Assembly: GCA_964016885.1 (NCBI GenBank)
Contig: OZ024746.1
Location: forward strand, 62,248,001-62,312,000
Length of the DNA: 64,000 bases
From: Eledone cirrhosa
Taxonomy: Eukaryota
Direction of reading: 5' to 3'
The notes under the pieces were generated by a model. It was not told the DNA's origin. It saw only the letters and a program-made list of their open reading frames with translations, and did not search any database. Shown here piece after piece: positions 15,701 through 39,897 of the stretch. Within the stretch, counting starts at the first letter, position 1. Each line of letters opens with the position of its first letter. A program made the translations under genes and the position numbers.

Positions 15701-18700
15701 AGATCTTCTGAGCCGATGCGGGAAATTTTTCCCTCAGGGCGCGCAGAGATACATTCTCCTCTGCTGGCGGTCATTGGCTGGGCTGAGCCAAATAACGCAC
15801 GGAGAATGTATATGAGCCTGCAGAATGTCGGTCACTACACTATATATACTCGTATATAAGCTGAGAAATATGTAACAAAAAAATCGATGGTAAAATGGAG
15901 CATCAATATTTTCCTGATGTTCACCAACTTCTAAATTCTACGTAAATGAGGTGCTAAAATATTTTTGCTTTGGAGGTGAATATTACACTGGTTTCACTTT
16001 AGAAGTGTATATTATAATGGTTTCACTTTGCGGGTGAATATTACACCTCTAAAATATGATATGGCTATGGAAAATAATCCACTAAAATACTACGACACTA
16101 TTTAGACACTAGTGAGCTATGATATTACTGTGGAAAGTTATCCTCGCAAATATTACCATACACTGTTTAGACAACACTGAATTATGATATGGCTGTGGGA
16201 AGCCACCCTCTAAGATATTACCACTCACTGTTTAGATACCACTGAACTATGATGTGGCTGTGGAAAGTTATCCTCTAAAGTATTACCACACTGTGTAGGC
16301 ATTACTGAATTATGATATGGCTGTGGAAAGTACTCCACTAAAATATTACCACACTGTGTAGACATTACTGAACTATGATATTACTGTGGAAAGTTATCTT
16401 CTAAGATATTACCACACTGTGTAGACACTACTGTATTATGATATGGCTGTGGAAAGTACTCCTCTAAGATATTACCACACTGTGTAGACACTACTGTATT
16501 ATGATATGACTGTGGAAAGTACTCCTCTAAGATATTACCACACTGTGTAGGCACTACTGTATTATGATATGGCTGTGGAAAGTACTCCTCTAAGATATTA
16601 CCACACTGTGTAGACACTACTGTATTATGATATGGCTGTGGAAAGTACTCCTCTAAGATATTACCACACTGTGTAGACACTACTGAACTATATGACTGTG
16701 GAAAGTACTCCACTAAGATATTACCACACTGTGTAGACACTACTGTATTATGATATGGCTGTGGAAAGTACTCCTCTAAGATATTACCACACTGTGTAGA
16801 CACTACTGACTTATGATATGGCTGTGGAAAGTACTCCACTAAGATATTACCACACTGTGTAGACACTACTGTATTATGATATGGCTGTGGAAAGTACTCC
16901 TCTAAGATATTACCACACTGTGTAGACACTACTGAATTATGATATGGCTGTGGAAAGTACTCCTCTAAGATATTACCACACTGTGTAGGCACTACTGTAT
17001 TATGATATGGCTGTGGAAAGTACTCCTCTAAGATATTACCACACTGTGTAGACACTACTGAACTATATGACTGTGGAAAGTACTCCACTAAGATATTACC
17101 ACACTGTGTAGACACTACTGTATTATGATATGGCTGTGGAAAGTACTCCTCTAAGATATTACCACACTGTGTAGGCACTACTGTATTATGATATGGCTGT
17201 GGAAAGTACTCCACTAAGATATTACCACACTGTGTAGACACTATTGAACTATATGACTGTGGAAAGTACTCCTCTAAGATATTACCACACTGTGTAGACA
17301 CTACTGTATTATGATATGGCTGTGGAAAGTACTCCTCTAAGATATTACCACACTGTGTAGACACTACTGTATTATGATATGACTGTGGAAAGTACTCCTC
17401 TAAGATATTACCACACTGTGTAGGCACTACTGTATTATGATATGGCTGTGGAAAGTACTCCTCTAAGATATTACCACACTGTGTAGACACTACTGTATTA
17501 TGATATGGCTGTGGAAAGTACTCCTCTAAGATATTACCACACTGTGTAGACACTACTGAACTATATGACTGTGGAAAGTACTCCACTAAGATATTACCAC
17601 ACTGTGTAGGCACTACTGTATTATGATATGGCTGTGGAAAGTACTCCTCTAAGATATTACCACACTGTGTAGGCACTACTGTATTATGATATGACTGTGG
17701 AAAGTACTCCTCTAAGATATTACTACACTGTGTAGGCACTACTGTATTATGATATGGCTGTGGAAAGTACTCCTCTAAGATATTACCACACTGTGTAGAC
17801 ACTACTGTATTATGATATGACTGTGGAAAGTACTCCTCTAAGATATTACCACACTGTGTAGACACTACTGTATTATGATATGGCTGTGGAAAGTACTCCT
17901 CTAAGATATTACCACACTGTGTAGACACTACTGTATTATGATATGACTGTGGAAAGTACTCCTCTAAGATATTACTACACTGTGTAGGCACTACTGTATT
18001 ATGATATGGCTGTGGAAAGTACTCCTCTAAGATATTACCACACTGTGTAGACACTACTGTATTATGATATGACTGTGGAAAGTACTCCTCTAAGATATTA
18101 CCACACTGTGTAGACACTACTGTATTATGATATGGCTGTGGAAAGTACTCCTCTAAGATATTACCACACTGTGTAGGCACTACTGTATTATGATATAGCT
18201 GTGGAAAGTACTCCTCTAAGATATTACCACACTGTGTAGACACTACTGTATTATGATATGACTGTGGAAAGTACTCCTCTAAGATATTACCACACTGTGT
18301 AGGCACTACTGTATTATGATATAGCTGTGGAAAGTACTCCACTAAGATATTACCACACTGTGTAGACACTACTGTATTATGATATGACTGTGGAAAGTAC
18401 TCCTCTAAGATATTACTACACTGTGTAGGCACTACTGTATTATGATATGGCTGTGGAAAGTACTCCTCTAAGATATTACCACACTGTGTAGGCACTACTG
18501 TATTATGATATAGCTGTGGAAAGTACTCCTCTAAGATATTACCACACTGTGTAGACACTACTGTATTATGATATGGCTGTGGAAAGTACTCCTCTAAGAT
18601 ATTACCACACTGTGTAGACACTACTGTATTATGATATGGCTGTGGAAAGTACTCCTCTAAGATATTACCACACTGTGTAGGCACTACTGAACTATATGAC

Positions 18701-21700
18701 TGTGGAAAGTACTCCTCTAAGATATTACTACACTGTGTAGACACTACTGACTTATGATATGGCTGTGGAAAGTACTCCACTAAGATATTACCACACTGTG
18801 TAGGCACTACTGTATTATGATATAGCTGTGGAAAGTACTCCTCTAAGATATTACCACACTGTGTAGACACTACTGAACTATATGACTGTGGAAAGTACTC
18901 CTCTAAGATATTACTACACTGTGTAGACACTACTGACTTATGATATGGCTGTGGAAAGTACTCCACTAAGATATTACCACACTGTGTAGACACTACTGTA
19001 TTATGATATGGCTGTGGAAAGTACTCCTCTAAGATATTACCACACTATGTAGGCACTACTGTATTATGATATGGCTGTGGAAAGTACTCCTCTAAGATAT
19101 TACCACACTGTGTAGGCACTACTGTATTATGATATGGCTGTGGAAAGTACTCCTCTAAGATATTACCACACTGTGTAGACACTACTGACTTATGATATGG
19201 CTGTGGAAAGTACTCCTCTAAGATATTACCACATTGTGTAGACACTACTGTATTATGATATGGCTGTGGAAAGTACTCCACTAAGATATTACCACACTGT
19301 GTAGGCATTACTGAATTATGATATGGCTGTGGAAAGTACTCCTCTAAGATATTACCACACTATGTAGGCACTACTGTATTATGATATGGCTGTGGAAAGT
19401 ACTCCACTAAGATATTACCACACTGTGTAGGCACTACTGTATTATGATATGGCTGTGGAAAGTACTCCTCTAAGATATTACCACATTGTGTAGACACTAC
19501 TGTATTATGATATGGCTGTGGAAAGTACTCCTCTAAGATATTACCACATTGTGTAGACACTACTGTATTATGATATGGCTGTGGAAAGTACTCCACTAAG
19601 ATATTACCACACTGTGTAGACACTACTGTATTATGATATGGCTGTGGAAAGTACTCCTCTAAGATATTACCACACTATGTAGGCACTACTGTATTATGAT
19701 ATGGCTGTGGAAAGTACTCCACTAAGATATTACCACACTGTGTAGGCACTACTGTATTATGATATGGCTGTGGAAAGTACTCCACTAAGATATTACCACA
19801 TTGTGTAGACACTACTGTATTATGATATGGCTGTGGAAAGTACTCCTCTAAGATATTACCACATTGTGTAGACACTACTGTATTATGATATGGCTGTGGA
19901 AAGTACTCCACTAAGATATTACCACACTGTGTAGGCATTACTGTATTATGATATAGCTGTGGAAAGTACTCCTCTAAGATATTACCACACTGTGTAGGCA
20001 CTACTGTATTATGATATGGCTGTGGAAAGTACTCCACTAAGATATTACCACACTGTGTAGGCATTACTGTATTATGATATAGCTGTGGAAAGTACTCCTC
20101 TAAGATATTACCACACTGTGTAGGCACTACTGTATTATGATATGGCTGTGGAAAGTACTCCACTAAGATATTACCACACTGTGTAGGCACTACTGTATTA
20201 TGATATGGCTGTGGAAAGTACTCCACTAAGATATTACCACACTGTGTAGACACTACTGAACTATATGACTGTGGAAAGTACTCCTCTAAGATATTACTAC
20301 ACTGTGTAGGCACTACTGTATTATGATATGGCTGTGGAAAGTACTCCTCTAAGATATTACTACACTGTGTAGACACTACTGTATTATGATATGACTGTGG
20401 AAAGTACTCCACTAAGATATTACCACACTGTGTAGACACTACTGTATTATGATATGGCTGTGGAAAGTACTTCTCTAAGATATTACCACACTGTGTAGGC
20501 ACTACTGTATTATGATATGGCTGTGGAAAGTACTCCACTAAGATATTACCACACTGTGTAGACACTACTGAACTATGATATGGCTGTGGAAAGTACTCCA
20601 CTAAGATATTACCACACTGTGTAGGCACTACTGTATTATGATATGGCTGTGGAAAGTACTCCTCTAAGATATTACCACACTGTGTAGACACTACTGACTT
20701 ATGATATGGCTGTAGAAAGTACTCCTCTAAGATATTACTGCACTGTGTAGACACTACTGTATTATGATATGGCTGTGGAAAGTACTCCTCTAAGATATTA
20801 CCACACTGTGTAGGCACTACTGTATTATGATATGGCTGTGGAAAGTACTCCTCTAAGATATTACCACACTGTGTAGGCACTACTGTATTATGATATGGCT
20901 GTGGAAAGTACTCCACTAAGATATTACCACACTGTGTAGGCACTACTGTATTATGATATGGCTGTGGAAAGTACTCCACTAAGATATTACCACACTGTGT
21001 AGACACTACTGACTTATGATATGGCTGTGGAAAGTACTCCTCTAAGATATTACCACACTGTGTAGACACTACTGACTTATGATATGGCTGTGGAAAGTAC
21101 TCCACTAAGATATTACCACACTGTGTAGGCACTACTGTATTATGATATGGCTGTGGAAAGTACTCCTCTAAGATATTACCACACTGTGTAGACACTACTG
21201 ACTTATGATATGGCTGTGGAAAGTACTCCTCTAAGATATTACCACACTATGTAGGCACTACTGTATTATGATATGGCTGTGGAAAGTACTCCTCTAAGAT
21301 ATTACCACACTGTGTAGGCACTACTGTATTATGATATGACTGTGGAAAGTACTCCTCTAAGATATTACCACACTGTGTAGGCACTACTGTATTATGATAT
21401 GGCTGTGGAAAGTACTCCTCTAAGATATTACCACACTGTGTAGACACTACTGAATTATGATATGACTGATAAATATAATCTTTTGATTTTTGAATCTTTT
21501 GTAGGTCAGAAAATTTGTGATATGATTGATGCGAAGATCTCTGAACATGCAGCTGAGACAGGTAAGACATATTTCAAAGTAGATTATCAAATAATTCTTA
21601 TATTTTCATCATAGTAATTTATCTAAAACATCTTAGCTTACTAATGTAGCCACGCACATGTGTTGGTAGTTCATTGATGTAGCCACATCACATGTGTTGG

Positions 21701-24700
21701 TAGTTCATTGTTGTAGCCATACCACGTGTGTTGATGGCTCACTAATGTAGTCACACCACATGTGTTGCTAGTTCATTAATGTAGCCACACCACATGACTT
21801 TATAGTTCATTAATGTAGCCACACCACATGACTTTATAGTTCATTAATGTAGTCACACCACATGACTTTATAGTTCATTAATGTAGCCACACCACATGAC
21901 TTTATAGTTCACTGATGTAGTCACACCACATGACTTTATAGTTCACTAATGTAGTCACACCACATGACTTTATAGTTCATTAATGTAGCCATTGATAGAA
22001 TGATTGGAATCCTCATTCCAACCAACCATTCCATTCCTATGAGAAATACATTTTATCAACTAACTAAGTTAATATATTTCCATTTTTATTTTCATAATAT
22101 AAGTTTTGATTTTTTTTTCTTCTTATTTAAAAAAAAAAATTTCTCCTCGTTTCATTTCTGAAGGTTTGGAGATATCCGAGATATTTGATGTGGAATCTAA
22201 GAAGTCTAAATCAGAAAATGTTGCTAAAAAGAACCAGAACCCTAGAACTAACAAGAAGCCTGAAAAATGTCTAAAAACAACAACAACAGTTCACACTATT
22301 AGCAGCTCTGATGAAAGTAACACAGAAGAACAAGCTGATCTACCTTCTATAGATCCTCAGATAGATAGTTTGACTTCAACCAAAGTTTGTACTTCAATTC
22401 ATTTATATCATCATCATCATCATCATCTCCACCACAATCATTATCATCATCATCTTCACTACAACCATCATCAACATCATCACCACCATAACCATTATCA
22501 TCATCATCTCCATCATTTCATCATCATCATCATCTTCATCTTCATTACAACCATCATCATCTTCACCACAACAATTATCATCATCATTATCTCCACCACC
22601 ATCATTTCATCATCATCATCATCATCTTCACCACAATCACCATTATCATCATCATCTTCACCACAACAATTATCATCATCATCTCCACCACCATCATTTC
22701 ATGCTCATCATCATCTCCACTCCCATCACCATTACCATCATCATCTTCATCATCACCAACAACATCATTTTTATGTCTGTTTTTCCATGCTATCATGTGA
22801 CTTTTTTTTTCAAGCAGTATTATTTGGCCAAATATCTTTCCTGGTGTCAACCATTTCTTTTTATAAGTAAGGTATTGCTGATTTTTTAACAACTGAGCTG
22901 TAGGGGTTTTTAAGACAGAGTTTATTAATGTTTTTTATTCCTACCCTATGAAAGATGAAGTCATGTATGTAAAACACAATTTCAAATTTGCCAGAAATAT
23001 TTTACATTTAACCCTTTAGCATTTACATTACTCTATATTTACTATTGTATTTCCATGGTAAAGGCTTTACTTCACGTAATTATTTCACATAATATCGAAT
23101 CTATGAGATTTTGATATTATTTATTTTGAGAACAATACCTTAACATCAGTATGAGTGGCTGGTTACAGTCTGTTTGAACAGAAAGAGGTGAGAGTATTCT
23201 GGCTGGGTATAGCTGGTTTAGATGCTAAAGGGTTAAAATGTAATTGTTTATGTGTTGTAGTTTAACACAAGTTCAATCCATTTCCCTATCCTGCAGAGCT
23301 TTGAGCAAATTTGTTCTAATTGCTGGACAGATTTTACAGGCAAAGCCAACCGGCAAGAGACCCAGTGGGTAGACCCCGAGCAAGATGATTGGATAACATC
23401 CATGAGCTCTGTTGGTTTCACTTGGGGATCCAGCCATATCAATTCGAGATAGTTGCTGCCCCTACGATCCTCTCAGGAATAAGTGGGCAAAGAAGAAGAA
23501 CTCTGGTTAGACATCACCCCCAAATATTAACTTAATAACTGTTTCTACTTTTGGCACAAGGCCAGCAATTTAAAGGGAAGGGGACAGTCGATTAAACTGA
23601 TCCCAGTGCATGTGTTACTGGTACATTATTTTATCAGGATTGGCAGTATCGGTAGAGGGTCGGACGCCATGCTTTCCAGCATAGTTACGTCCCTTTACGG
23701 TCTGAGTTCAAATCCCGCCGAGGTTGACTTTGCCTTTCATCCTTACGGGGTCGATAAAATAAAGTACCAGTAATGCACTGGGTAATTGCTGGCCTTGTGC
23801 CTAAAGTAGAAACAATTATTTTATCAACCCTGGAAGGGAGAAAAGCAAAGCTAACCTTGGCCGGATCTGAATTGACGTAATAATGAGAAAGTTAACTGTT
23901 AACGAGATCCCTCCAAATCTTTGGTTAATTTCAAAATTATTTGAAAACTATAGTCAGTGCAGTGTGTTGTGAGATGTATAGTGTGCTATGTGTTGTATAG
24001 TGTGTTGTGTGTTGTATAATGTGTTGAGATGTAATGTAACTGCAGTGAAATGGCTGAGATGTAACCTAAACTCCATCAAAAGGTAAATCTCACCTCTCTG
24101 TTATTGCAGTCTAAAAATGGCAGTAAAACGAAGGAATATCTCCCCAAATATCGTTCTGGTGCTTATGCCATATTACTGACACTCTTCAGAAGTCAGAAGG
24201 TAAATGTTGCATATTTTACTTTTTTTAATGGTTATTGCAAGTAGAAATAATAATATTGATAATAATAATGATAGTAATAATTTCTAAAAGTGCAACAGCA
24301 TATTTTTACTTTTTCAAAAATGTGCCTGTGAGTAAAAAAAGTTCTAGAATCACTGCTCTAGATCAAGAAACTAAGATAAGAAACTTTGATTGAACACAGA
24401 CATACAAATACTTAGGAATCAATAAACAGTGTACAACACACACAAATAAAAGAAAATGATAATAACAATAATACATATTTCTTGACACCTTTTCAGGAAT
24501 ACATGACCAAAGAGGAATTGATTCTTGAAGCTCAACCATTAAGTGAGACATCATTTAAGTCAGTAAGTAATATCCTATATTATTTGTTAGAGCTACAGAT
24601 GATAGTAGAATTGAATTTTTTTAATCTTCTGGATGCTATAGGCGCATTATGTTGCCAATACAGTAACCTCCCCTTAACACATAATGCAGTGTCAAGGAAA

Positions 24701-27700
24701 GCAATTCATAAAAATTTCTAATATGCTAAAGGTTAACCCTTTCATAATAATATTTCTAATAAAATTCACTGCCTATATGTTTCATTATCATTTATCACCC
24801 TCATCTGCATTGGAAATTGTATCTTCCCTGCTAGCAAGAATTGGATGAGTTGTCATAGACCAAGTGTTTAATTCTAAGGTCCAGCCTTGTCAAATTCTAT
24901 GTCATGTTGTTTTTTCCTGAAGACTATATTAACCTTTTAGCATTTAAACCGGACATATTTGACCAGAATTCTCTCACCTCTTCCTGTTCAAACTGGCCAT
25001 AAGTGGCCATTCATTAAGGTACTGTTCTCAAAATAGATAATATCAAAACCTTGTAGATTCAATATTATGAGATATTTATGTGAGGTAAAGCCTTTACCAC
25101 AAAAATAAAATAGTATATATAGAGTAATAAAAATGCTAATGGGTTAAGGGTATACATATTTGTAGAATACTCAGCCATTTACATGCTTATCCAATGACCA
25201 ATTAATTTAATTATACAACTGAATACTCATCGTTGAGATCAACAGAGATTCATTTACTTGTGATTTTTAAAAGTAAAAAATTCAAATTTATATAATATTT
25301 CTATTGTACACAGTGTTTTATAAAATTTTATATTATTTTGATTATGTAACCTAATTAGTAGCAAAGAAGAGTACTCCGAGAGCATAGTAGCTAGAATAAG
25401 GATAGGATGGAAGAAGTTTAGAGAGCTACTCTCACTGTTGACAACCTGCATACAAAAGGACCTCTGTATGACACCTGTGTGTGAGGTGTGATGGTGCATG
25501 ATAGTGAAAGATGGGCAGTGACTGCAGAGGATATACTTAGGCTGGAGAGAAATGAAGCAACCGTGCTTCATTGGATGTGCAATATAAATGAGAGGAAAGC
25601 AAAGCTTAGATGAACTGAGGAATCAGAAGTGGTGTACAAGAGAGAAGACTGCAAGATAATCACTGGGTGAAGAAGTGCCAGGAAATCCCAGGGGAGGGAA
25701 GCCACAATAGAGGTAAACCAAAGAAGACCTGGGTGGAGGTGGTGAGAGCTGATCTCAAATCGCTGTGACTCACAAAGTAGATGATGAAGGAATGTGGCAA
25801 GTGGAGAAATGCTGTGCTGAAAAGGACCCCTCCAATCCATGCAAGCATGGAAAACACATAAAAATGATGATGATGATGGCAAATATCAGTGCCATAGCCT
25901 TTCTATAGTTCTTAAATTTCTTTGGCAATTCTTCAGCAAACTTTATCTTTTATCTTTCAGGTGACTGATTCTTACTACTCAGCCTGGTCTTCAGTTAGCA
26001 CTTTGATAAAGAAAGAATTTGTTGTGAAACAGAGCACTCCTGCAATGTAAGTACAGAAAATATTTCACATAATTAGTTCTTGGGGCTTACTTTTGTGTTG
26101 CACATATTATAAGTTCAATCACCCTCTTTGGGTTTGATCTTTGCATCCATTCCATTGATGTTTACTTATCTACTTCACTTTTCATGTCTCTTATAAACTG
26201 GCTATACATCAATTTCAGAAGTTTGGAGCCAGAGAGAGAGATAGTAAAGTGAGAAGTGTTGAGCTTTATATACCTCTAGCTGTCATCAAGGCTATTTTAG
26301 TCTGGGTTGCTGACACATGGCATTTCTGTAAACATAGAAAATTTATCCTGGGGAAAAGCTATAGCATTTAGCTTTCAAATGATCTGGTTTACTTAGGTGT
26401 CACAGGGTTAGAACAACTCACAGTGCTGTAGGTAGTGTAAATATGGCAAAACTGACAAATGTTTCACAGACTTTCAATGAGGAGAGTTCAAGTCCATATG
26501 CAGGTAAAGTTGCTTGGGGCACTGGTGTCCTATCCAGGAAGAGATTTATCTCATATCTGTTGAATACTATGCAAACTTATCATAAATATGTTATACAGCC
26601 TATTCTAAGAGGCCATGACAGATTATCCTTTTCTTTCAATTAACATATAAGACCTTAGTGAAGGCAAGTGGCCTAGTGGTTAGGGTGGTGTGTTGGTTTC
26701 AAGATTGTAAGATAGTGGATTTGATCCTCAGACTAGGTGGCACATTATGTCCTTCAGCAAAACTCTTCATCTCATGTTGATCCTGTCCAATCAAGTAGCT
26801 GGGGGGGAGATTAACCTTGGGATGAGCTGGCATCCTATCTTATATACCCAGTCACTTAATTCTTTTGATACCAAACAGCATGAAACTGCACAGGATTTAT
26901 GACATAAAGCTGCCCATTTTAAAATATTTATCCTTATATTAAAACCTTCCATCATAGTTTTATGTTAGAAAATATTCTTAAGTAATGTCCTAAATATCAG
27001 CTTACTAATGAAAACTTTAATTATGTTATTTAATTCCTTGAAATATTTAATTATTTTCAAAACTAATTGAAACACATAGGCAGTGTATTTCATTAGAAAT
27101 ATAATAATGAAAGGGTTAATGCCACATAAGTTCTGGCCTGATGAGCTTCTATGTTCAAGAAAGAACTTCTTGATCTGTATGACTCAAACACTGTTCACTT
27201 TTCTGACATTTGTACATTATTATATGTACTATACATGCACATTTGATGAGTTTTAGTGCACCTGAGCACTGAACACAACAATTTCATTATTGTTATTTTA
27301 TGAATTGTCCCAGGTTGTTGTCGTTTGCCTGATCATGGGGCATCAAATGAGTTTCCAGGGCCTACTGCAAAGAGGTCAACAAACTTGCACCCCAAGAAAG
27401 ACCTTAAATTAATATGCAAATTTACCAGCATGGTTATACCAACTGTTGTTGGTTTATTCTATCTTTTCTTCCTTCTTTTTTTATTCTCCAGATATTCTTT
27501 GACAGATTCTGGGCAGTCATTAGCTTTGAAACTTTCTCAGTCTGCTGCACGAGACAACCAAAAGGTTATACCTTCTCATACTAGTAAGGAATATACCAGT
27601 TCCATATCACTTCCATCAGCAACAGGAACATTCACAAAACTTCAGCCATTTTCAGATTCCAGAAAATTCTCACCAAACCAAGAAAATTCTTGTAATCTGA

Positions 27701-27844
27701 ATAAATATACTGGACAAAACTCTGAGTAAATATCAACATTTGGTATTATTTTTTTGGAAAAAGGTGGTACACCATCAGACATTTTAATATAAACTAACTT
27801 CTGTATAGGATGGCCTGCTTCCTTCAACTTTTCAGTTGCATCTG

Positions 27845-27875
<31 letters not shown>

Positions 27876-27968
27876 CATTTCATCATCATCAGGTTGCTAC
27901 ATTACTATTTTACCACCACCATCACAACCACCTCCACCACTGCCATCAACATGACCATCACCACCACC

Positions 27969-28000
<32 letters not shown>

Positions 28001-29719
28001 TATAGTGGATTAGCAGTATCGGTAGAGGGTCGGATGCCATGCTTTGCAGCACAGAGTTACGGCCCTTTGCGGTCTGAGTTCAAATCCCGCCGAGGTTAAC
28101 TTTGCCTTTCATCCTTACGGGGTCGATAAAGTAAAGTACCAGTAATGCACTGGGATAATTGCTGGCCTTGTGCCAAAAGTAGAAACAATTATTATCATCA
28201 TTATCCTCCTCATCCTCCTCATCATCATCATCAATATTTACATCACTGATTTACCTCAGTATTTCCATGCAACCATGAAATGTATGGGAATTTTTGGAGG
28301 CAATGTTCTATGGCTAGATGAGCTTCAGTGAAATAAACTTATATAAAGAGGCACATGGCTTAGTGGTTAGAGCATTGGCCTTGCAATCGAAAGGTTGTGA
28401 GTTCAATTCTCAGACTGGGTGATGTGTTGTTTCCTTGAACAAGACACTTTATTTCACATTGTTCCAGTTTACTCAGCTGTAGAAATGAGATGATAGGACT
28501 GGGGTCCCTATCATTCCACTGCAAAGTGGTCGTGAAGGTGCCACAGCAAAAAAGCACCCAGCACTCACTGTATATGAGGTTGGTGTTAGGAAGGGCATCC
28601 AGCTGTAGAAATCAAGCCAGAATCAGTCCCCGTCCCACCCTTGCAAGCAGGGAAAAGCGGACGTAAAATGAAATGATGATGATGATGAAAGAGGTAGTCC
28701 AACCATTCACATCATAAAATCAAGTTTGTAACATTATGAAAAATTGGCCTTAAAACACTGTTTATAAAAAAAGAAAATTAACACTACATTCTCTTTATAA
28801 AAGTTTCGATATTAAATTAACTCTGTACAATTAGTAAAATTTAATTAACTTAGTCAAACTTGATCATACAAGAAATATCATATTCTATGGCTAAAGATGA
28901 TAGCGGTGGAAATGAAAGACAGAAAGTTGATTGGTGGGGTTGGGGGTGGGGGGGACAAAGCTAAAAAAAAAATGGAGAAGCTCGTCATGGGGCCTGTTAG
29001 GCTAACTTCTGCTTTAGTAGGGGAGAAATGACCTTACAATGTTTGTTGTTCTGTTGTTGTTAGTGCTGTGCTTTCTTTGTAAAACTCTTCTGATAAAAAG
29101 ATTTTAAAAAACCACTCCATTTTATTTTTTTTAACCAATCAGAATGAAAAAGATTGTTCCTTCAGATGATGTAGTCTGCATTAATGATGACATCTGTGAA
29201 ATGGAGGATATTTGTGATGACGGTCCAGATATGGTTGTTACACAAGATGTTACCAGCCCAGAATTAGTATTACAGCCATACACATTTGATATTGTACTTC
29301 TTGTTGATAACTGTGAGTTCTATGGTGGGTAAGTGGCCAATTCATTTTATTTGTTATAGACACAATTACAAACATATCAAGTACATATACATGCCTTACT
29401 GAGTCCATTGCTTACTCTCACATTACCAATGGCACCTCTGTCTTAATCTCACTTTTTTAATAGCACCTCAGTACATGACTTACACTGCTCTGCTCTCAAA
29501 AACATTCATCTACTCCAGGACACTCTGTCAAAGGCCTTCTGCATATCAATGAAAGATAGATATACCAGTTTACACTGCTATATCTATCTGTCTATTTGTC
29601 TTGTCTGTCTATCTGACTTGTCTGTCTGTTTGTCTATCTATTTATATGTCTGTCTGTCTATTTATCTGTATATCTGTCTATTTAAAAATGAAATTAGAAT
29701 TTATATATATGTGTGTATG

Positions 29720-29768
<49 letters not shown>

Positions 29769-30143
29769 GAGGGCAATCCCAAAAGTAAGGTCTCCTTCCA
29801 ATATTGCAACTTTTCCGTTAAAATCCTGTGGATGGTGCTTTGGGAAACCTCAGGAACCAAAATGCAGAGAGCATCCAGAGTGATCCGCTGATCTTACTTT
29901 TGGGATTGCCTTCTATATAATAACTGCGCGAAATTCACACTTGGCGGTAGCATTCAACGGGAGCTCCATTCTCAATGGCTGCCAAGCCAAGATTGAGCAT
30001 CCCAGCGAAGCGCACGCATGCTTGTTTGGGAGTGAAGGAAGCACCAATCACAACAGTGTTGCCAACAGTCGTACGAACAGTTTCTCTGCGTCCCCATCGC
30101 TTTGGAGACCTTACTTTTGGGATTACCCTCGTATATATATATA

Positions 30144-30174
<31 letters not shown>

Positions 30175-32235
30175 GTGTGTGTACGTGTGCATACTTACAT
30201 CTGTCTATTTATTTATCTGTTTATGTATTTATATGTCTGTCTATCTATCTATATATCTGTTTGTCAGTTGAGTGTCTGTATGTCAGTGTGCATGTGTGTG
30301 GAATGCTGATGTGGTTTTCTTTCTATACGTAGGTCTGATGTAAACAAACCTATAATGACAGACTTAATCAAGAATGGTGTAAACTGTATGTTGAGGAAAC
30401 TGAATGTTGGAGATTTCCTTTGGGTAGCAAGGTCTAAACAAACTCACAATGGTATGTATATATGATATATAACCCATGCTAGCATGGAACAATGGATGTA
30501 AAATGGTGATGATGATGATGATGATATATGTATATATTAGGCACCTCTCATCCAAATATACACCCCAACCCACTACCCCTACTCCATCCTCCCACTCCCA
30601 CCAACACCACCCTTTCTCTGTAAAGTTATGTTGGTACCACAACATCCTGTCCAAACTAATGAGATTGTGTAGGTGTCACGACAAAAAAAAACACACAGTC
30701 CACGCTATAATGTGGCCGTGTAGGTAACACGGTAAAAAGCTCCCAGTTCCACACTGTAAACGTGGTTGGTGTTAGGAAGGTCATCCAGCCGTAGAAAACC
30801 TGCCAGACAGTCCTATACGAGCGAGACACAGTCACCCGACCAATTTTGCCTCAAGTGGGACAATTCCCATCTAACCCATGCTAGCGTGGAAGATAAACCT
30901 TAAACGATGATGATGATGATGTGTGTGTGTATCAGCCTTTTACACCCTCCATCCATGCGGACATGGGTTGGATAGGTCCTCATGGTCTAAGACTAAACAA
31001 CTGTTGTAGTCTAGCAAGAACAATAGAAAGAAATGTATCTGGCAGCAGTGTTAATCAAGAAATTGAGGTAGATTTAGGAGAATTGTATTGGTAGTAGTGT
31101 GGATATAGTCTGGCCAAACAGTTAAGAAGGTCTTGAGTTCAATCTCACCATAAGGTATCTGTGTCTAGTTCCATTTACCATAGCCTCCGGTCAACCCAAG
31201 TCATGCAAGTGGAATTGAGTAGATGGAAACTCTTTGGCTTTGTCACACACTGTGTCATGCTGAATCTCCCTGAGAATTACATTTAGGACACACCTGTCTG
31301 TGGAATGCTCAACCACTTCACAAGCAAGCCACTTCACAAGCAGGCTGTTCCATTGACCAAATAACTGAAACACTCATCATCAAAACCAATGGAGTTTCAT
31401 TCCATTCTGTTGGCAGTAATGAAGATTATAACATTGGTTATGATATCTTCATTGTCGTTGTCGTCATTGGTGTCGTCGTCATCATCATCATCCTTTAATG
31501 TCCACTTTCCGTGTTAATAAAGGTTGGATGGGTCTACATAGACCAATTCAGTGCTGAAGTAGGGCTACGCTGAGGTTGTTATGTCCTTGACACAACTGAA
31601 GGGTCCTCCCAACTATATTTGGCAAGCTTTCTATGGCTTGATGCCCTTCCTATCACCAACCACTTTACAGTGTGTATTGGGTGTGTTTATCATGTAGATC
31701 ACCAACACTAGAGAGGTTGCCATACTGTGGCATGACTGAAGGGTCCTCATGACCCTTTTTTATTTATGTAGATTTTTTTTTTCAGTATTCTTGGAGGAAG
31801 TCAACAATAATAATTTTTAAATGATGTTAAGACACAGGATTCCAGCCTGATTTTTCTTTCTACTTTTCACCAGAAAAACCAATTGAACTTGTCTTAAATT
31901 ACATTGTGGAGAGAAAACGAATGGATGATTTATCTGGAAGTATTATAGATGGCAGGTTTCGGGAACAAAAAGTATGTCTAAATTATTATTATTATTATTT
32001 ATTATTATTATATATTATAAAAACGTCTGGTGAATTGGCAGTATCGGTAGAGGGTCGGACGCCATGCTTTGACGCATAGAGTTACGGCCCTTGCCAATCT
32101 GAGTTCAAATCCCGCCGAGGTTAACTTTGCCTTTCATCCTTACGGGGTCGATAAAATAAGGTACCAGTAATGCACTGGGTAATTGCTGGCCTTGTGCCAA
32201 AAGTAGAAACAATTATTATATATACACTGCCCTGC

Positions 32236-32269
<34 letters not shown>

Positions 32270-35200
32270 GGTGGACGTAAAATGATGATAATGATGATGG
32301 CGGTGAATTGGCAGTATCGGTAGAGGGTCGGACACCATACTTTGCAGCATAGAGTTATGGCCCTTTATGGTCTGAGTTCAAATCCCGCTGAGGTTAACTT
32401 TGCCTTTCATCCTTACGGAGTCGATAAAATAAAGTACCAGTAATGCACTGGGGTAATTGCTGGCCTTGTGCTAAAAGTAGAAACAATTATTATATATACA
32501 GTGGAACCTTAGTTCATGAATTTAATTTGTTCCTAAAGGCATCACCTGAAAATTTAGTAAATCAAAACTGTTTTTCCCATACAAAATATTGAGAGAGAAA
32601 TACAGTAAGAGAGAGAGATATTACCATAGTAACTACACAGCAAGTGAGGCTTTCCTGCTGATATTCCGAACCATTGTTTCTAGCTTGTGTGTTCATTACG
32701 CAAGAGTCCGTTTGTCACCCAAGATGTTTTATGTTCGGAAACATTGTTCATGAACTGATTTGTTTATGATGAGAGGCATTCGTAAACTAAGGTTCCACTA
32801 TCTATAATATAATAAAGGGAGGAGTGCGGGACTGTGTCCATTTTATATTTTTTAATCCCGTTAGTAAAATAAGTTGCATTACTTTGAATAAATAATAAAT
32901 GTTGTTGTTGTTGATTTAACATAAATATTCTTATATATAATGATTACTTATTTTAAGATTCACTTCTTTTAAAATTTTCAAATGTCAATACTTCCAGTTA
33001 ACATCTGTGTGCTATATCACATCGCTTATATAAACATTCATATATTTGCATCGTTATATCATAACGTTTATATTTCTGTCTCTAATTTTCTCCTTTTTCG
33101 TTTTCATTACATTTCACCATAATGCAGTTTATATATAATATCATCTTTTTAAATGTATCGTGGACTACTTTACTTACAGAAGAGAGTGTAATACGGTCTC
33201 TCTTCAATTTCTGTGCATATTGTCAATTACGATTTTATTTGATGTATCATATCTACATGCATATAATACTTGCGTATAATATCAATATACACACTACATA
33301 TGCTAGCAACCCGAAGTGTGGTTTTCTGCTAGTATATTCTAATACATGTTGAGTGCAATTGTGATTTTATATATATTTTTTTTTCTTTAAATGCAGTTTC
33401 GTCTGAAGCAGTGTGGTTTAAGACATGCTATCTATCTAATTGAGGAATATGGCTCTGCAAAACACCTGAGTGTCTCTGAAGATAAATTAATTCAAGCCAT
33501 AACAAACACACAGGTAATATAGTTTGTTTATATATTTATTTATTTGAAAGGTGGTATTTGATGGTTGATTGGATCACCAGTAAAGGCTTTGGTGTCATTT
33601 GGTTGCTGTTGTTATAGTTTAGCCACAGGTCAGTACTGGTCAAGCACACCTTCAATTGCTGTTATAGTTTAGCCACAGGTCAGTACTGGTCAACCAGACC
33701 TGCAATTGTTGTTATAGTTTAGCCACAGGTCAGTACTGGTCAAGCAAACCTGCAATTGTTATAGTTTAACCACAGGTCAGTACTGGTCAAGCAGACCTGC
33801 AATTGTTGTTATAGTTTAGCCACAGGTCAGCACTGGTCAACCAGACCTGCAATTGTTGTTATAGTTTAGCCATAGGTCAGCACTGGTCAAGCACACCTGC
33901 AATTGTTGTTATAGTTTAACCACAGATCAGCACTGGTCAAGCAGACCTGCAATTGTTGTTATAGTTTAGCCACAGGTCAGTACTGGTCAAGCAGACCTGC
34001 AATTGTTGTTATAGTTTAGCCATAGGTCAGCACTGGTCAACCAGACCTGCAATTGTTGTTATAGTTTAACCACAGGTCAGCACTGGTCAAGCAGACATGC
34101 AATTGCTGTTATAGTTTAGCCATAGGTCAGCACTGGTCAAGCAGACATGCAATTGCTGTTATAGTTTAGCCATAGGTCAGCACTGGTCAAGCAGACATGC
34201 AATTGCTGTTATAGTTTAGCCATAGGTCAGCATTGGTTGGCATCAGGAAAGACATCTGGCTGTAACACCATTCCTTACGAAGAACCTTATATTATGGGGT
34301 CTCACACAGCTAACCCCTGCTTTACTGGGGTAGATGACCTTTAAACACTTGTTGTTGTTTTGTTGATATGTTTCTCGTTAATGTTTTACTGTTTGCTTTT
34401 ATACAGGTAATTGACGAATTCCAAGTTAAAAGAACAGAAAACTCTAAGGAATCGGTGGCTTACCTGACATTGTTAACACGTTACCTTCAAAGTTATTATT
34501 TGGTGAGTGACTATTGTTTCACACTTAAACATATATATATATATTGATGTGTCGAAACGTCCGAGACCCACAGCAGACAACTGAAGAGGGAATCTGTCCT
34601 TTGTTTATGTTTTCCTTATATTTCTAAACACTCATTTTTAGTAACCACACAGCACCGAGTCCCTTCTAAATTTTTATATATATATATAAATATATATAGG
34701 CGGAGGTGGTGAGAACAGACCTCAGATTGCTGAAGCTCACGGTGGAGATGACGAAGGACCGTGACAAGTGGAGAGATGCTGTGCTGAATAAGACCCGTCC
34801 CACCCTTGCAAGCAGGGAAAAACGGGCGTAAAATGATGATGATGATGATGATGATAGGTGGCGAATTGGCAGTCATTAGAACGCCAGATAGAATGCTTTG
34901 TGGTATTTGTTCCAGCTCTCTGATCTCTGAGTTCAAATCCCACCGAGGTCAACTCTGCCTTTCATCCTTTGGAGGTCAATAAAAAAAATACCAGTCTAGT
35001 ACTGGGGTCAATTCTTCCTCTATCTCTTCCTCATTTCCTCTCTCTCTTTTTCTATCTTTCTCTGGAATAAATCTACTGTACTCAGGCCTGGAGAAGGAGG
35101 GGTTCTGCCAGGCTTAAGAAACCACATAGAGGCTCATTGGTTTATCATTGTTGTTGTTGTTGTTGTTATCATTGCTGTCATTGTAGGAAAAGAGAAATAA

Positions 35201-38200
35201 TAGTATAGTTTCAAATTAACCCTTGCACACATCTCTATAAATGATTGAATGTTTGAGAATAACCCATAGCTTGAACACATCTAACACACTGCAGTATTAC
35301 GATATCTAGCCTGGGAGCATATGACGGTCAGCTGAAAGGTTCATAGGCTGACCAAATACTCTCATGGAATGACCAAATGAAGTTTATTTTTCAACATAGT
35401 CCCTTGAAAGAAACAATGTAGTTATTAATAAGAAGAATTAAAATTAATGCATGCCACGCAAGGTTTCACAGCTCTAGCACCAATCATTCATAGTCAGCCT
35501 ATGAACTTATTCAGCCAACCGTTGTAAGATATCTAGCAAATATGAGTGAGACCTGATCATCCTTCCTGTCTAGGAGTACAGTCATTCTGACTGATATTTC
35601 TAGCATGTCAAATGACCACATAGTCTCACTCATTAATTCAGATTCCCTTATTAACTCAAGATGACCAAAAAATGTAACAAGTGATGATATGCTGTACATC
35701 TGATATATGCCAGCACATTAAAGAAACATTACAATGATGATGGTGATGATGATTGTGGTGGTGGTGGTGGTGATGATGTAGTAGTAGTAGTAGTATCTGC
35801 TAGTTTATGACCTAGTATTAAATTGTTGATGACATCTTCTCTTGTATTACAGAAGAAAACTTTATATGGCAGCAATGAAGTAGTGAAAGATAAACCAGGA
35901 GAAGAGATGCTCAATAGTTTGGACAGTGCAGTAGAAATTTTGTGTAATTTCGAGCACTTCAATAAATCTGCTGTAAAGACCAAGGTGACTATGATTGCGT
36001 TTACTGTTCTGTATTTTATCAACGAAGCAATGTAAAGATAATTAAGGTGTTTGACTATTAACTTTGTATTAAGTTCACACTTTTCATCTCCATTCACTAT
36101 AAATAATTTGTTTTGCTGCAATAGTCTAAAGTCTGTCTTAAGCCAGAAGGCTCGTTAGGCCAGTGCTTATCCCAGTTTCATGGCATGAAATGACTGAGAG
36201 TACAAGACACCCCCTTGGACAGGACGCCAGTCCCTTGCAGGGTTAAACCTCCAACTATTGCTGGTATTCATTTTCAGCTGAGTGTACTGGAGTAATGTGA
36301 AATGAAGTGTTTTGCCCAAAAACACAACACGCAACCCAGGAATCGAACCCATGACATTATGATTGTAAGTCCAACACCCTGACCACTTGGCCAGATTTCA
36401 CAGCTCTAGCATCAATCCTGTGCTGCAATAGCTAGGTTTCAAATTATGTCCTGCTTCACAAAGCTCCATATGTTCCACTGATGTTGATCTGTGAAAGTCT
36501 GTTGTTGATGTTGTTGTTACGGCTCACACCTGCCTCCAAAGTGGTTTCATCTCAATAAAGGTTTCTTGGATGTTTTCAAAAAAGGGCCCTAGTCCTTTCT
36601 TGTCAACATTTTCTCAGTTACATCAGAGCAGTATTTGAACTCAGAACTAAAACAGATACGGCAAGGTGTCCTACATACTGGTCAATACTGTCCTTGACTA
36701 GTACATAATTAGTGACCATCCCATGTAATGGTCAATATTCTCATTGACTAGTACATTATTTAGTGACCATCTCATGTAATGGTCAACAGTCATTGACTAA
36801 TACATCATTTAGTAAGAAGCAATAGACTCTACACCCCATTCTGAATGGTATATTTCAGATGTGCCCCACAGACAAAGTAATTTGAAATCATAGGCAATGT
36901 CGTTCGTTAGAAATATGTTAACAAAATAGTTAAATATTAGATATAGTTTAGTTATAGGTCTGATACTGATACCAAGTTATACTGTATTGTAATTGATGGT
37001 CATATTTCTGTATGAACAGGTGTTAACAGTGAGGGAGATGTTTGCAAAGCAGTTGATTCATTTTCCCAACATGTCTGGAGCAAAAGCATTTGCTGTCACC
37101 GAGAAATGGCCAACACCTTCCAGGTGAGCCTTGTTTATTAAATTTATTTTTCTTGTATTTGTTTGTTTTTGATATATAAACATCGAAACAGAGCTGACTT
37201 GAGTGTAATTTGAATTCAGGATGTAAAGAACCAAAACAAATACTGAGCTAAATGCCCTGCAGTGTTTGTTATGGCTCTATATATTCTGAGCTTCAATTCC
37301 TCAAGGAATTTCATCATCACCATCATCATTTAACATTTGCTTTTCCCCCCCACACCACCCTTTCTCTGTAAAGTTATGTTGGTACCACAGAACATCCAGT
37401 CTACACTAAAGTGGTTGTGTAGGTGTCACGAAAAAAAGAACCCAGTACACACTGTAAAGTGGTTGTGTAAAAGACATGGTAAAAAGGCTCCCTGTCCACA
37501 CTGTAAATGTGGTTGGTGTTATGAAGATTATCCAGCTGTAGAAAACCTGCCAGATACAGTCCTATACGAGCGAGACAATCACCCAATCAATTTTGCCTCA
37601 AGTGGGACAAGTCCCGTCTAACCCATGCTAGCGTGGAAGATAGCTATTAAACGGTGATGATGATGATGATGATGATTTTCCTGCTAGCAAGGGTTAGTCG
37701 GGTCATCAACAGACCAACTCGGTACTCAAGCTGAACTACTGACCTCCCAGATGGACGAGGGGCCTGAATCTTGCTTACATACAATCCCACACTAGTACCA
37801 TTCTAATAATTCTGCCAATCTACACAACAACAACAACAATAACTACTGAATACTGAACTTAAGTTTCAACTGTTTCTGTCATTGGTCAATATATATATAT
37901 ATATAACTTCACTTATTTTATATTATAGTTTATTTGAAGCTTATATTGATATCATTGGCCAGTTTATATAATTCCACATATATTTTGTATTATAGTTTAT
38001 TTGAAGCTTATATTGATATCATTGGCCAGTTTATATAATTTCACATATATTTTGTATTATAGTTTATTTGAAGCTTATATTGATATCAATGGACAGTTTA
38101 TATAATTTCACATATATTTTGTATAATAGTTTATTTGAAGCTTATATTGATATCAATGGCCAGTTTATATAATTTCACATATATTTTGTATAATAGTTTA

Positions 38201-39897
38201 TTTGAAGCTTATATTGATATCAATGGGCAGTTTATATAATTTCACATATATTTTGTATAATAGTTTATTTGAAGCTTATATTGATATCATTGGCCAGTTT
38301 ATATAATTTCACATATATTTTGTATAATAGTTTATTTGAAGCTTATATTGATATCATTGGCCAGTTTATATAATTTCACATATATTTTGTATAATAGTTT
38401 ATTTGAAGCTTATATTGATATCATTGGCCAGTTTATATAATTTCACATATATTTTGTATTATAGTTTATTTGAAGCTTATATTGATATCATTGGCCAGTT
38501 TATATAATTTCACATATATTTTGTATTATAGTTTATTTGAAGCTTATATTGATATCATTGGCCAGTTTATATAATTTCACATATATTTTGTATTATAGTT
38601 TATTTGAAGCTTATATTGATATCATTGGCCAGTTTATATAATTCCACATATATTTTGTATTATAGTTTATTTGAAGCTTATATTGATATCATTGGCCAGT
38701 TTATATAATTCCACATATATTTTGTATTATAGTTTATTTGAAGCATACAATGCTTGCCCAAATAAAATCAGTCAGGAACAGATGATGAGTAATATCAAGG
38801 CAGGAAAATCAAACAGGTATACTCTTTTATTATTATTTTTCTAATGGTTTCAGTCATTGGACTGCTGCCATGCTGAGGTACTGCTTTTGGTTAATCTTAT
38901 TGATACTGTCCTTTTTTAAACAGGTGTTATATCAAACACATAAACACAAACAGTGATATTATCTAACCATCTTGCTCATGCCAATTGGTTTTGCCCAGAA
39001 AATTTGTTCAGAAAATCTGTCCTTAGACATTCTAACAACATGTCTGTCGTATTGGAGTTGTGATCTGTCAATTCAGAGAAGTAGCAGCTCTACCTGGAAT
39101 GACTCTGATCTCTGAGCTGCTTACTCTATTCACTGACGTTACTCTAAAGACCATTTGGAGGAAACCCATTTTGGCTGTTTGTATTTGCAATCCTACTCTT
39201 TCAGTCATTACCCATGATTCATAATTTAAAATTTAATCATTATTAAAAATTGTGGTTAAATTTTAAAATTATGATTAAATTTTAAAATGAAAGATACTGA
39301 GTTTCAAGTACTACTGAGTAATTTTCTTAAGAAATTCAAGGTGGACATAGGCTTGGCTGTGTGTTTATGAAGCTTTTTTTTTTACAACTGTATGGTTCTG
39401 GGTTTGTTCCCACTTCACTGTATCTTAAATAAGTGTCTGCTATAGTGTTGGGATCACCAAAGCCTTATGACTGAAATTTAGTGGACAGAAACTGTATGGA
39501 AGTCCATCAAAGTGGTAATTCCTGTTATTTTTTAAAGAGGGAAGACATAATCCATTGCTCTGTTTAATACCACTACCTTATTATTAGATGCCTTTACTAG
39601 ATATTACACTGTTGCAGGAATTAAGGCCAGGTGTCCAGTCTAAGGATAATTTCTTCCTATCACTCCTCTCTCCCTCTCTCTGTATTGCCATATCTCCATG
39701 GGTACTTCTTTCTTCTAAGGCATATTAAAAGAAAAAAGAATGGAGAAAAGATTTATGGAAAATTTATAATTTATAGCAATTAAAGAAAATCTGTCTCAGT
39801 CAGCCCATTCTAATGTTCTTGTTCCATTTGTTCTTGCAGAAATTTTGGTCCAGTTCTAAGCAGAAAAATTCAACAGTTCTACTGTCCAGATCGTTGA
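12563..39897 (+). CDS. MUS81: Crossover junction endonuclease MUS81, 17 coding exons, 652 aa
   Basis: join(12563-12700,14885-14957,21505-21561,22164-22384,24110-24199,24497-24562,25961-26046,27492-27725,29143-29328,30333-30451,31874-31971,33397-33513,34407-34502,35853-35984,37020-37123,38733-38816,39840-39897); all GT-AG, phases consistent, 1959 nt; motifs [73 protein letters not shown]. Confidence 0.96.
12717..13450 (-). mobile_element. tRNA-derived SINE split by a CR1-like LINE 3' fragment (12806-13343)
   Basis: SINE consensus breaks at gaggtaaa and resumes at gcaaagttaacctcgg; the insert encodes [31 protein letters not shown] (CR1 ORF2 C-terminus) with a (TTA)n tail. Confidence 0.88.
13505..13935. 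repeat. GT-rich compound minisatellite
   Basis: Recurring gtgtgtggttgtatgtctatgtccgtctgtgtgagtgtgtagtt units. Confidence 0.85.
14050..14515 (+). repeat. Four diverged ~130-bp tandem copies of a SINE-body segment
   Basis: aaatgcacccagtacactctg..gttggt..gaagg..tagaaacc near 14085, 14214, 14355, 14487; the same motif is dispersed near 28550, 30740, 37440, 41900. Confidence 0.65.
14885..14957 (+). CDS. MUS81: MUS81 exon 2 ([25 protein letters not shown])
   Basis: tctatag| acceptor, |gtttgt donor; N-terminal HhH motif. Confidence 0.93.
15006..15213 (+). mobile_element. piggyBac-like MITE (TTAA TSD, CCCTTT...AAAGGG)
   Basis: ttaa|ccctttaacatt ... aatgctaaaggg|ttaa; homologues at 23012, 24933, 42997. 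Confidence 0.85.
15387..15839 (-). mobile_element. Possible solo LTR
   Basis: TGTAGT...ACTACA termini, CpG-richer interior, AATAAA on the minus strand; no clear TSD. Confidence 0.35.
15840..15960 (+). mobile_element. Left half of a Tc2/pogo-type MITE
   Basis: tatatactcgtatataagctgagaaatatgt..tcgatggta matches the complete MITE at 39947-40121; no right TIR seen. Confidence 0.6.
16040..21468. repeat. 63-bp tandem satellite, about 85 units, in MUS81 intron 2
   Basis: Unit ~ctgtggaaagtactcctctaagatattaccacactgtgtagacactactgtattatgatatgg; 60-bp variants; degenerate left edge. Confidence 0.97.
21505..21561 (+). CDS. MUS81: MUS81 exon 3 ([19 protein letters not shown])
   Basis: ttttgtag| acceptor, |gtaaga donor; completes the FGxKIC hairpin; phase 1-1. 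Confidence 0.92.
21641..21991. repeat. 34-bp minisatellite, about 10 units
   Basis: taatgtagccacaccacatgactttatagttcat. Confidence 0.92.
22164..22384 (+). CDS. MUS81: MUS81 exon 4 (low-complexity linker GLEISEIFD...LTSTK)
   Basis: tttctgaag| acceptor, aaa|gtttgt donor; phase 1-0 bridges exons 3 and 5. Confidence 0.8.
23012..23232 (-). mobile_element. piggyBac-like MITE, inverted relative to the 15006 and 24933 copies
   Basis: ttaa|ccctttagcatttac ... gatgctaaaggg|ttaa. Confidence 0.85.
23295..23500 (+). mobile_element. RTE-clade LINE 3' remnant
   Basis: gcaaagccaaccggcaagagaccc..ggataacatccatgagct..ctctcaggaataag..(gaa)n; homologous to 62040-62410. Confidence 0.6.
23540..23872 (-). mobile_element. 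SINE (-) containing an antisense-inserted full SINE (+, 23637-23814)
   Basis: 12-bp TSD attattttatca at 23625-23636 and 23815-23826. Confidence 0.85.
24110..24199 (+). CDS. MUS81: MUS81 exon 5 (winged helix: [17 protein letters not shown])
   Basis: ttgcag| acceptor, aag|gtaaat donor; phase 0-0. Confidence 0.94.
24497..24562 (+). CDS. MUS81: MUS81 exon 6 ([22 protein letters not shown])
   Basis: ttttcag| acceptor, |gtaagt donor; winged-helix motif TKxELxxxAQ. Confidence 0.93.
24933..25143 (+). mobile_element. piggyBac-like MITE
   Basis: ttaa|ccttttagcattta ... aatgctaatggg|ttaa. Confidence 0.85.
25364..25880 (+). mobile_element. RTE-clade LINE 3' fragment with (GAT)n tail
   Basis: Decayed [14 protein letters not shown]..; ends catgcaagcatggaaaa..aaatgatgatgatg. 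Confidence 0.75.
25961..26046 (+). CDS. MUS81: MUS81 exon 7 ([28 protein letters not shown])
   Basis: ctttcag| acceptor, |gtaagt donor; winged-helix recognition helix YxAWSS. Confidence 0.94.
27492..27725 (+). CDS. MUS81: MUS81 exon 8 ([14 protein letters not shown]...)
   Basis: ttctccag| acceptor, ga|gtaaat donor; YSLTxxG winged-helix wing motif. Confidence 0.9.
28004..28193 (+). mobile_element. tRNA-derived SINE with Nin/Deu-like central domain (main family)
   Basis: A box tggcagtatcgg-like, B box gagttcaaatcc, core ttaactttgcctttcatccttacggggtcgataaa, tail agaaacaattatta. Confidence 0.88.
28348..28688 (+). mobile_element. Second tRNA-head SINE family with RTE-type tail
   Basis: tggcttagtggttaga..gagttcaattc..ccttgaacaagacactttatttcacattg; relatives at ~26660 (+), ~36150-36392 (-), ~40700-41005 (-). 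Confidence 0.7.
29143..29328 (+). CDS. MUS81: MUS81 exon 9 (...[19 protein letters not shown])
   Basis: aatcag| acceptor, gg|gtaagt donor; start of the ERCC4 domain (VLxVDxxE). Confidence 0.93.
29768..30131 (-). mobile_element. Mariner deletion derivative(s) with three TIR copies
   Basis: TIR cgagggcaatcccaaaagtaaggtctc at 29768, inverted copies ending ~29914 and 30131, TA flanks; minus-strand remnants [17 protein letters not shown] and [13 protein letters not shown]. Confidence 0.8.
30333..30451 (+). CDS. MUS81: MUS81 exon 10 (…[16 protein letters not shown]…)
   Basis: acgtag| acceptor, g|gtatgt donor; catalytic GD motif. Confidence 0.96.
30600..30920 (+). mobile_element. RTE-tailed SINE; close relative at 37350-37675
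   Basis: caccaccctttctctgtaaagttatgttggtaccac..taacccatgctagcgtggaagata..(gat)n shared by both copies. Confidence 0.75.
31874..31971 (+). CDS. MUS81: MUS81 exon 11 ([29 protein letters not shown])
   Basis: caccag| acceptor, |gtatgt donor; ERKxxxD active-site motif. Confidence 0.97.
32029..32492 (+). mobile_element. Two full-length main-family SINEs (32029-32218, 32299-32492)
   Basis: Both run from ggtgaattggcagtatcggtagagggtcgg to agtagaaacaattatta. Confidence 0.9.
32499..32800. mobile_element. Tigger/pogo-type MITE
   Basis: ta|cagtggaaccttagtt ... aactaaggttccacta TIRs. Confidence 0.8.
32801..33332 (+). mobile_element. Non-autonomous Helitron
   Basis: A|TCTATAATATAATAAAG start; aacccgaagtgtggtt hairpin, then CTAG|T at 33329-33333. 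Confidence 0.7.
33397..33513 (+). CDS. MUS81: MUS81 exon 12 ([19 protein letters not shown]...QAITNTQ)
   Basis: atgcag| acceptor, cag|gtaata donor. Confidence 0.96.
33604..34237. repeat. 50-bp minisatellite, about 12.5 units
   Basis: gcaattgttgttatagtttagccacaggtcagtactggtcaagcagacct. Confidence 0.94.
34407..34502 (+). CDS. MUS81: MUS81 exon 13 ([32 protein letters not shown])
   Basis: atacag| acceptor, |gtgagt donor. Confidence 0.95.
35322..35524. mobile_element. Mariner-type MITE
   Basis: ta|tgacggtcagctgaaaggttcataggctgac ... gtcagcctatgaacttattcagccaaccgttg|ta. Confidence 0.8.
35853..35984 (+). CDS. MUS81: MUS81 exon 14 (KKTLYG...[12 protein letters not shown])
   Basis: ttacag| acceptor (CAGAAG NAGNAG), aag|gtgact donor; FxxFNxxAxK motif. 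Confidence 0.92.
37020..37123 (+). CDS. MUS81: MUS81 exon 15 ([34 protein letters not shown])
   Basis: gaacag| acceptor, ag|gtgagc donor; first C-terminal HhH. Confidence 0.95.
37879..38744 (+). repeat. 67-bp tandem array containing the exon-16 splice acceptor (13 AG copies)
   Basis: tag|tttatttgaagc with AG ending at 37928 + 67k, k = 0..12; the last (38732) is the real acceptor. Confidence 0.96.
38733..38816 (+). CDS. MUS81: MUS81 exon 16 ([28 protein letters not shown])
   Basis: tattatag| acceptor, ag|gtatac donor; phase 2-2; matches LxxAYxxC...IKxG. Confidence 0.93.
39840..39897 (+). CDS. MUS81: MUS81 terminal exon 17 ([18 protein letters not shown])
   Basis: cttgcag| acceptor; RNxGPxLS second HhH hairpin; TGA at 39895-39897. 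Confidence 0.95.

Follow-up and report, generated by a model that had tools for sequence, protein, structure and literature searches.

A 67-bp minisatellite repeats the intron 15/exon 16 splice acceptor of MUS81 thirteen times in Eledone cirrhosa

Minisatellites whose units contain an intron end and the adjoining exon head have been described in amphioxus as 'mirage' minisatellites, and the reports place them in Adh3, troponin C, the globin genes BflGb6 and BflGb9, and PGBD5, where they leave splicing undisturbed (PMC3087553, PMC3902484). The earlier report also describes block-wise turnover of units, a diverged edge and length variation (PMC3087553). In the human F7 gene, a 37-bp VNTR in intron 7 carries identical pseudo-donors that are functional but silent (PMC1557585). 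The 25-bp VNTR in intron 18 of human ABCA7 is leaky, with one-unit retention, a stop, exon skipping and an effect of repeat length (PMC5954066). No cephalopod report of a mirage-type array was found in the literature searched, which takes in few subscription journals.

The window, that is, the whole 64,000-nt stretch of DNA that was analysed and to which coordinates refer unless a locus is named, comes from a 3.0-Gb genome with chromosome-scale contigs and contains a MUS81 gene. Its 17 exons were placed by hand, and a frame check showed 652 open codons and GT-AG ends at all introns.

12563..39897, plus strand: host gene MUS81, 17 exons, 652 aa, with Pfam and PDB matches
37020..37123, plus strand: exon 15, 104 nt, where the C-terminal HhH region starts; donor at 37123, phase 2
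38733..38816, plus strand: exon 16, 84 nt, phase 2 to 2, penultimate exon; donor at 38816
39840..39897, plus strand: coding part of exon 17 up to the stop, which fits the length of the spliced contig described below

Exon 16 is flanked by introns of 1609 nt on the 5′ side and 1023 nt on the 3′ side. MUS81, an XPF/ERCC4 nuclease, is built from an N-terminal HhH, a winged helix, an ERCC4 nuclease domain and a C-terminal HhH pair, and Pfam matches in six of the nine exons sent followed the MUS81 order (HHH_8, MUS81-like_WH, ERCC4 three times, and EME1-MUS81_C). One ERCC4 exon passed the curated Pfam cut-off (E 1.6e-7); the remaining matches fell below it because the exon pieces are short. Exons 13, 14 and 16, each sent alone, gave no Pfam match, and exon 15 matched MUS81 chains in the PDB with an E value of 0.01. 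Exon 14, used as query in a protein search of low sensitivity, recovered no relatives.

The window contains several other repeats and mobile-element remains. A 63-bp minisatellite of 86 copies occupies 16055-21468, its 3′ end separated by 36 nt from MUS81 exon 3; the long open frames on its minus strand probably result from the 63-bp period. Further tandem arrays lie at 21642-21991, 33607-34237, 36679-36813 and 41265-41728. A Helitron Rep/PIF1 helicase gene at 4298-8760 (plus strand) is split over several frames and shows the domains Helitron_like_N (E 3e-54) and PIF1 (E 7e-46), and a LINE remnant at 43193-44500 (plus strand) retains a piece of reverse transcriptase (RVT_1, E 3.5e-16). Very long (TA)-rich blocks stand on either side of MUS81, at 1-2216 (2.2 kb) and 47827-60461 (12.6 kb).

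The array itself covers the boundary between intron 15 and exon 16, and its unit consists of the last 55 nt of intron 15 followed by the first 12 nt of exon 16.

37900..38744, plus strand: 67-bp minisatellite (TRF: period 67, 12.6 copies, 98% matches, score 1571)
37879..37928, plus strand: 5′-most acceptor copy (AG 37927-37928), diverged upstream of its AG by TA expansion and indels
37994..38665, plus strand: 11 further upstream acceptor copies, with AGs ending at 37995 ... 38665
38731..38732, plus strand: AG of the used acceptor, the 13th copy; the loose end of the spliced contig matches 38733-38762

A script run on the sequence located 13 AGs spaced 67 bases apart, at 37928 + 67n up to 38732, and confirmed the original prediction that only the last of them continues into exon 16. 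The same 12 nt follow each of the 13 AGs; past the GAAGC motif, ATACAAT follows the 13th AG, in contrast to TTATATTG at the other 12. Twelve units, each departing from the consensus at zero to three positions, fall into six types, and units with the same variant stand next to one another in blocks. Five copies in the middle of the array (AG 38129-38397) carry the acceptor end TATAATAG, and their description as weaker sites was borne out by scores of 1.7-2.3 bits, obtained with the matrix introduced below. The upstream copies had also been called 12 near-identical decoys, a description that holds for eleven; the 5′-most copy has diverged in the stretch before its AG and scores higher than the used acceptor.

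A genome search, which skips very common words, returned 13 matches to the unit, all 13 at the MUS81 array; as they all lie at this one place, the idea that the unit derives from a transposon or other dispersed sequence was rejected. Micro-exons inside the array were likewise rejected, the unit having just three weak GT sites. Each unit also holds three adjacent palindromes (AAGCTT, GATATC and TGGCCA; for example at 37941-37965), the middle one being lengthened to 12 nt in units 3-5, and these would be convenient for restriction typing of array length.

In its anatomy, the MUS81 array closely resembles the amphioxus mirages. It is a head-to-tail repeat whose unit lies across an exon–intron boundary, its extra copies are intronic and all 12 upstream ones keep their AG, and its interior shows concerted evolution with a diverged copy at the 5′ edge. 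Tandem intron end plus exon head is common to both, BflGb6 is of the same acceptor-side type, the 67-bp unit falls within the reported range of 10-160 bp, and a homogenised interior with a diverged edge recurs. Normal mRNA splicing is also shared, being indicated at MUS81 by one spliced contig, from one of four runs, that joins at the exon-adjacent site. The amphioxus cases differ in lineage and genes, and length polymorphism and somatic instability were shown there. The F7 VNTR is similar in that its first unit crosses an exon–intron boundary and its exon-proximal site is used, but it lies on the donor side and was explained by 5′-to-3′ scanning (PMC1557585). Scanning from the 5′ side cannot explain the choice at MUS81, because 12 other copies precede the used site. 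The ABCA7 VNTR likewise carries a splice site in each unit and yields a frameshift and stop when an extra unit is included, which makes it a precedent for a length-dependent dial; it differs in lying on the donor side and in having a measured leak that depends on length, whereas no leak was seen at MUS81 (PMC5954066). The MUS81 array is a 'mirage' minisatellite and likely harmless, repeats of its kind being on record from lancelets and humans, and the original prediction's treatment of the arrangement as unusual does not stand, all the more as it recurs in other genes of this genome (see below).

The use of the 13th acceptor was examined in transcripts by aligning contigs from four sequencing runs of one study, their kind unrecorded, to exon 15. 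One run, X1, gave a single contig of 2,076 nt (depth 9.17) that aligned over exon 15 only and was flanked by the end of exon 14 in front and by window positions 38733-38762 behind. This contig is therefore spliced, and spliced to the 13th copy. Just 30 letters of each loose end are visible; by length arithmetic, the contig has room ahead of exon 15 for exons 1-14 and 26 nt more, and after it for exon 16 and 149 nt of exon 17. The other three of the four runs gave continuous genomic contigs over exon 15, which are uninformative on the array, and X1 belongs to the same study as the DNA runs possibly behind the assembly. No contig on exon 15 in the four runs had an upstream-copy tail or skipped exon 16, at a depth of about 9 in X1. 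A minor leak would stay invisible here, because contigs lose rare variants, the depth is about 9, and decay would probably remove stop-bearing mRNA. These results show that the main stable form of MUS81 mRNA uses the last AG, with minor forms left unbounded; of the junctions foreseen from donor 37123, the one to 38732 was seen in one contig, and none to an upstream copy was seen in that contig at depth ~9.

The strength of the sites does not account for this choice. With a matrix derived from the other 15 acceptors of this gene, the used acceptor scored 3.4-3.9 bits, eleven upstream copies were equal or nearly equal to it, and one, the 5′-most copy (AG 37928), was above it at 6.2-6.7 bits; site strength thus fails as an explanation, because the 5′-most copy outscores the used 13th copy. 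The used acceptor is weak, with about 5% of 112 called kinase acceptors scoring lower in a set that is biased upward by calling. Predicted RNA structure left the used AG most open (0.50 vs 0.14-0.41 in the other copies), and the last 10 nt had a predicted openness of 0.06 in the used copy vs 0.02-0.13 in the others; as a cause of site choice, predicted structure thus gave no clear signal among the 13 copies. Only the last AG defines a short exon, of 84 nt vs 151-888 nt for the upstream copies, most of which would yield exons of more than 300 nt, and only the sequence after the last AG is exon-like (35% GC and 23% U vs 21% GC and 49% U in the unit). Carranza et al. report that with long flanking introns the sites nearest across the exon are favoured, and that for human 3′ sites the preference for upstream sites is reduced, though still present, under exon definition (PMC9225289).

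The consequences of upstream joins were computed. Exon 15 joined to any of the 12 upstream copies leads to a TAA 41 nt downstream of the acceptor, and the peptide that had been predicted to precede it was recomputed for all 12. The stops lie 108-845 nt before the exon 16 donor, which is the last junction, so that every upstream join is computed to place its stop more than 50 nt before the last junction, as in poison splicing; the 50-nt rule has been reviewed as widespread in eukaryotes, flies included (PMC6173133). The distance of 108 nt given beforehand for the nearest stop is arithmetically right. Two stop-free outcomes had been missed: skipping of exon 16, which by phase arithmetic keeps the frame, and use of a second AG at 38699.

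38706..38708, plus strand: TAA that use of copy 12 would reach, 108 nt short of the last exon junction (38816)
38698..38699, plus strand: weak second AG in the last unit, predicted to add 11 residues in frame, without a stop

How often exon ends in this genome carry copies of their own splice site was estimated from 60 stretches of 10 kb around short-exon matches, taken from 138 protein-kinase matches. The kinase profile gave 163 exon-like matches, of which 148 at 15 bits or more were kept and 15 under 15 bits were dropped. Minisatellites with a period of at least 20 bp numbered 58 in these 600 kb of kinase-gene DNA and were present at 30 of the 60 loci. Exon ends, 245 of them in 59 loci, were called from the kinase frame and without an RNA check, and the 24 letters across each exon boundary were sought within 1.5 kb. 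Local copies of the own splice site were found at 5 of the 245 ends (~2%, 95% interval 0.7-4.7%), a count reached after inspection, in which L076 was dropped (a mis-called acceptor with an intronic 29-bp repeat) and L042 was added (the caller had taken an upstream copy). The same boundaries sought in another locus gave 4 of 2450, so the MUS81 array, as a repeat, is far beyond chance, but splice-site capture by a repeat is no rarity in this genome. The presence of further arrays over splice sites, for which a genome scan had been proposed, was thus verified among sampled kinase genes.

L042:2844-3141 (G000:C15:13221844-13222141), minus strand: acceptor array in front of a kinase exon that we take, from its motifs, to be CDKL-like; ~7 copies of ~37 nt, each joining an intron end to an exon head
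L084:5084-5720 (G000:C1 near 322459200), plus strand: donor array of ~10 decaying copies, starting ~280 nt behind the exon of a presumably ERK-like kinase
L097:3542-3770: three donor copies downstream of a kinase exon, presumably PKC-like by its motifs
L059:3809-3873: one donor copy downstream of a kinase exon, presumably PKG-like by its motifs
L061, 61 nt downstream of the donor: one donor copy, in a presumably Chk1-like kinase gene (motifs)

At all five kinase exon ends, the copies lie on the intron side. The MUS81 array is longer and more homogeneous than these cases but of the same kind. Local copies were found for 212 of 1800 intronic AG/GT-centred look-alikes and for 301 of 2737 random non-exonic positions, dispersed repeats being included in both counts, and splice-site copies are thus about six-fold rarer at exon ends than at the intronic look-alikes (Fisher p 1e-7). 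Such depletion is what one would expect if these copies were accidents, either tolerated or slightly harmful, and it suggests that arrays at splice sites carry a cost in general. At the rate of 5 in 245, a gene with 17 exons, and thus 32 exon ends, has a chance of 0.33-0.48 (33-48%) of holding at least one captured splice site. Captured splice sites are thus a side product of repeat turnover throughout the genome, and some purifying selection acts on them.

The reading we favour, and regard as probable, is that a 67-bp minisatellite copied the intron 15/exon 16 boundary 13 times, that the last copy is the one used, and that the 12 upstream copies are tolerated by-products leaving with the intron. 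The array most likely arose from one duplication across the boundary, possibly where the two ends briefly resemble each other in TGAA(G)CTTA; the stretch preceding the first copy has a short resemblance to the unit junction, which may mark the origin. Slippage or unequal exchange would then have expanded and homogenised the units, leaving the 5′ edge copy to diverge. The last copy is probably chosen by exon definition, given the long flanking introns, the short exon and the exon-like sequence beyond it, and the likely mechanism is that preference for this exon-proximal copy removes the array together with intron 15. Rare use of an upstream copy would lead to a stop and probably be cleared by nonsense-mediated decay as noise, without regulation. 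Both alternatives that the original prediction had offered, skipping of the upstream sites or a repeat-number dial on dosage, can be weighed here: skipping fits the spliced contig, and the dial lacks support, no upstream junction having been seen and copies being depleted at splice sites.

The upstream copies might instead be leaky but unselected, taking more than ~10% of splicing or promoting in-frame skipping of exon 16, with degraded products and a somewhat lowered MUS81 output as mutational load. Eleven copies roughly equal to the used acceptor and one stronger, a stop in every upstream join at 108-845 nt before the last junction, a frame that survives exon 16 skipping, the six-fold depletion of splice-site copies in the genome, and the ABCA7 precedent (PMC5954066) all agree with such a leak. 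It is opposed by the lack of upstream-copy or skipped contigs on exon 15, by the exons of more than 300 nt that most upstream copies imply, and by the silence reported for amphioxus mirages and F7 pseudo-sites (PMC3087553, PMC3902484, PMC1557585). We consider this leak unlikely, while leaving it some weight because the upstream 3′ preference is described as reduced and not abolished (PMC9225289). In a further reading, selection has made array length an inherited regulator of MUS81 dosage that works by unproductive splicing. The anatomy permits it, amphioxus minisatellites of the same kind vary in length (PMC3087553), and VNTR length alters splicing at ABCA7 (PMC5954066). However, the spliced contig gives no sign of upstream-copy use, the same accident is found in decaying states at several unrelated kinase exons, and arrays are depleted, without enrichment, at splice sites; nothing supports a selected dosage dial, and we give it hardly any credence. 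Equally little likelihood attaches to an assembly artefact in the array or its copy number. Array length is taken from the assembly, but the six unit types stand in ordered blocks beside a diverged edge copy, an array of 845 bp is small by the standards of a chromosome-scale assembly (the contig measures 103 Mb), similar arrays are common in this genome, and the 13 unit matches all lie at one place in a search that skips very common words.

Such repeats change length by way of recombination and replication intermediates, and MUS81 also acts on these. There is a slim chance of a leak that grows with array length and is masked by nonsense-mediated decay: the upstream copies, which include one that outscores the real acceptor, would draw off part of the splicing, and a mutable repeat would thereby set the dose of a crossover nuclease. 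If true, a leak that scales with length would matter more here because MUS81 acts on those very intermediates. The useful addition is the rate of captured splice sites at exon ends, the MUS81 array being otherwise one more mirage. If about 2% of exon ends carry such arrays, there would be thousands of them in this genome, a natural panel for studying the choice among identical 3′ sites, and acceptor-side cases like this one, in which the used copy comes last among 13 without being the strongest, offer a clean test of exon definition.
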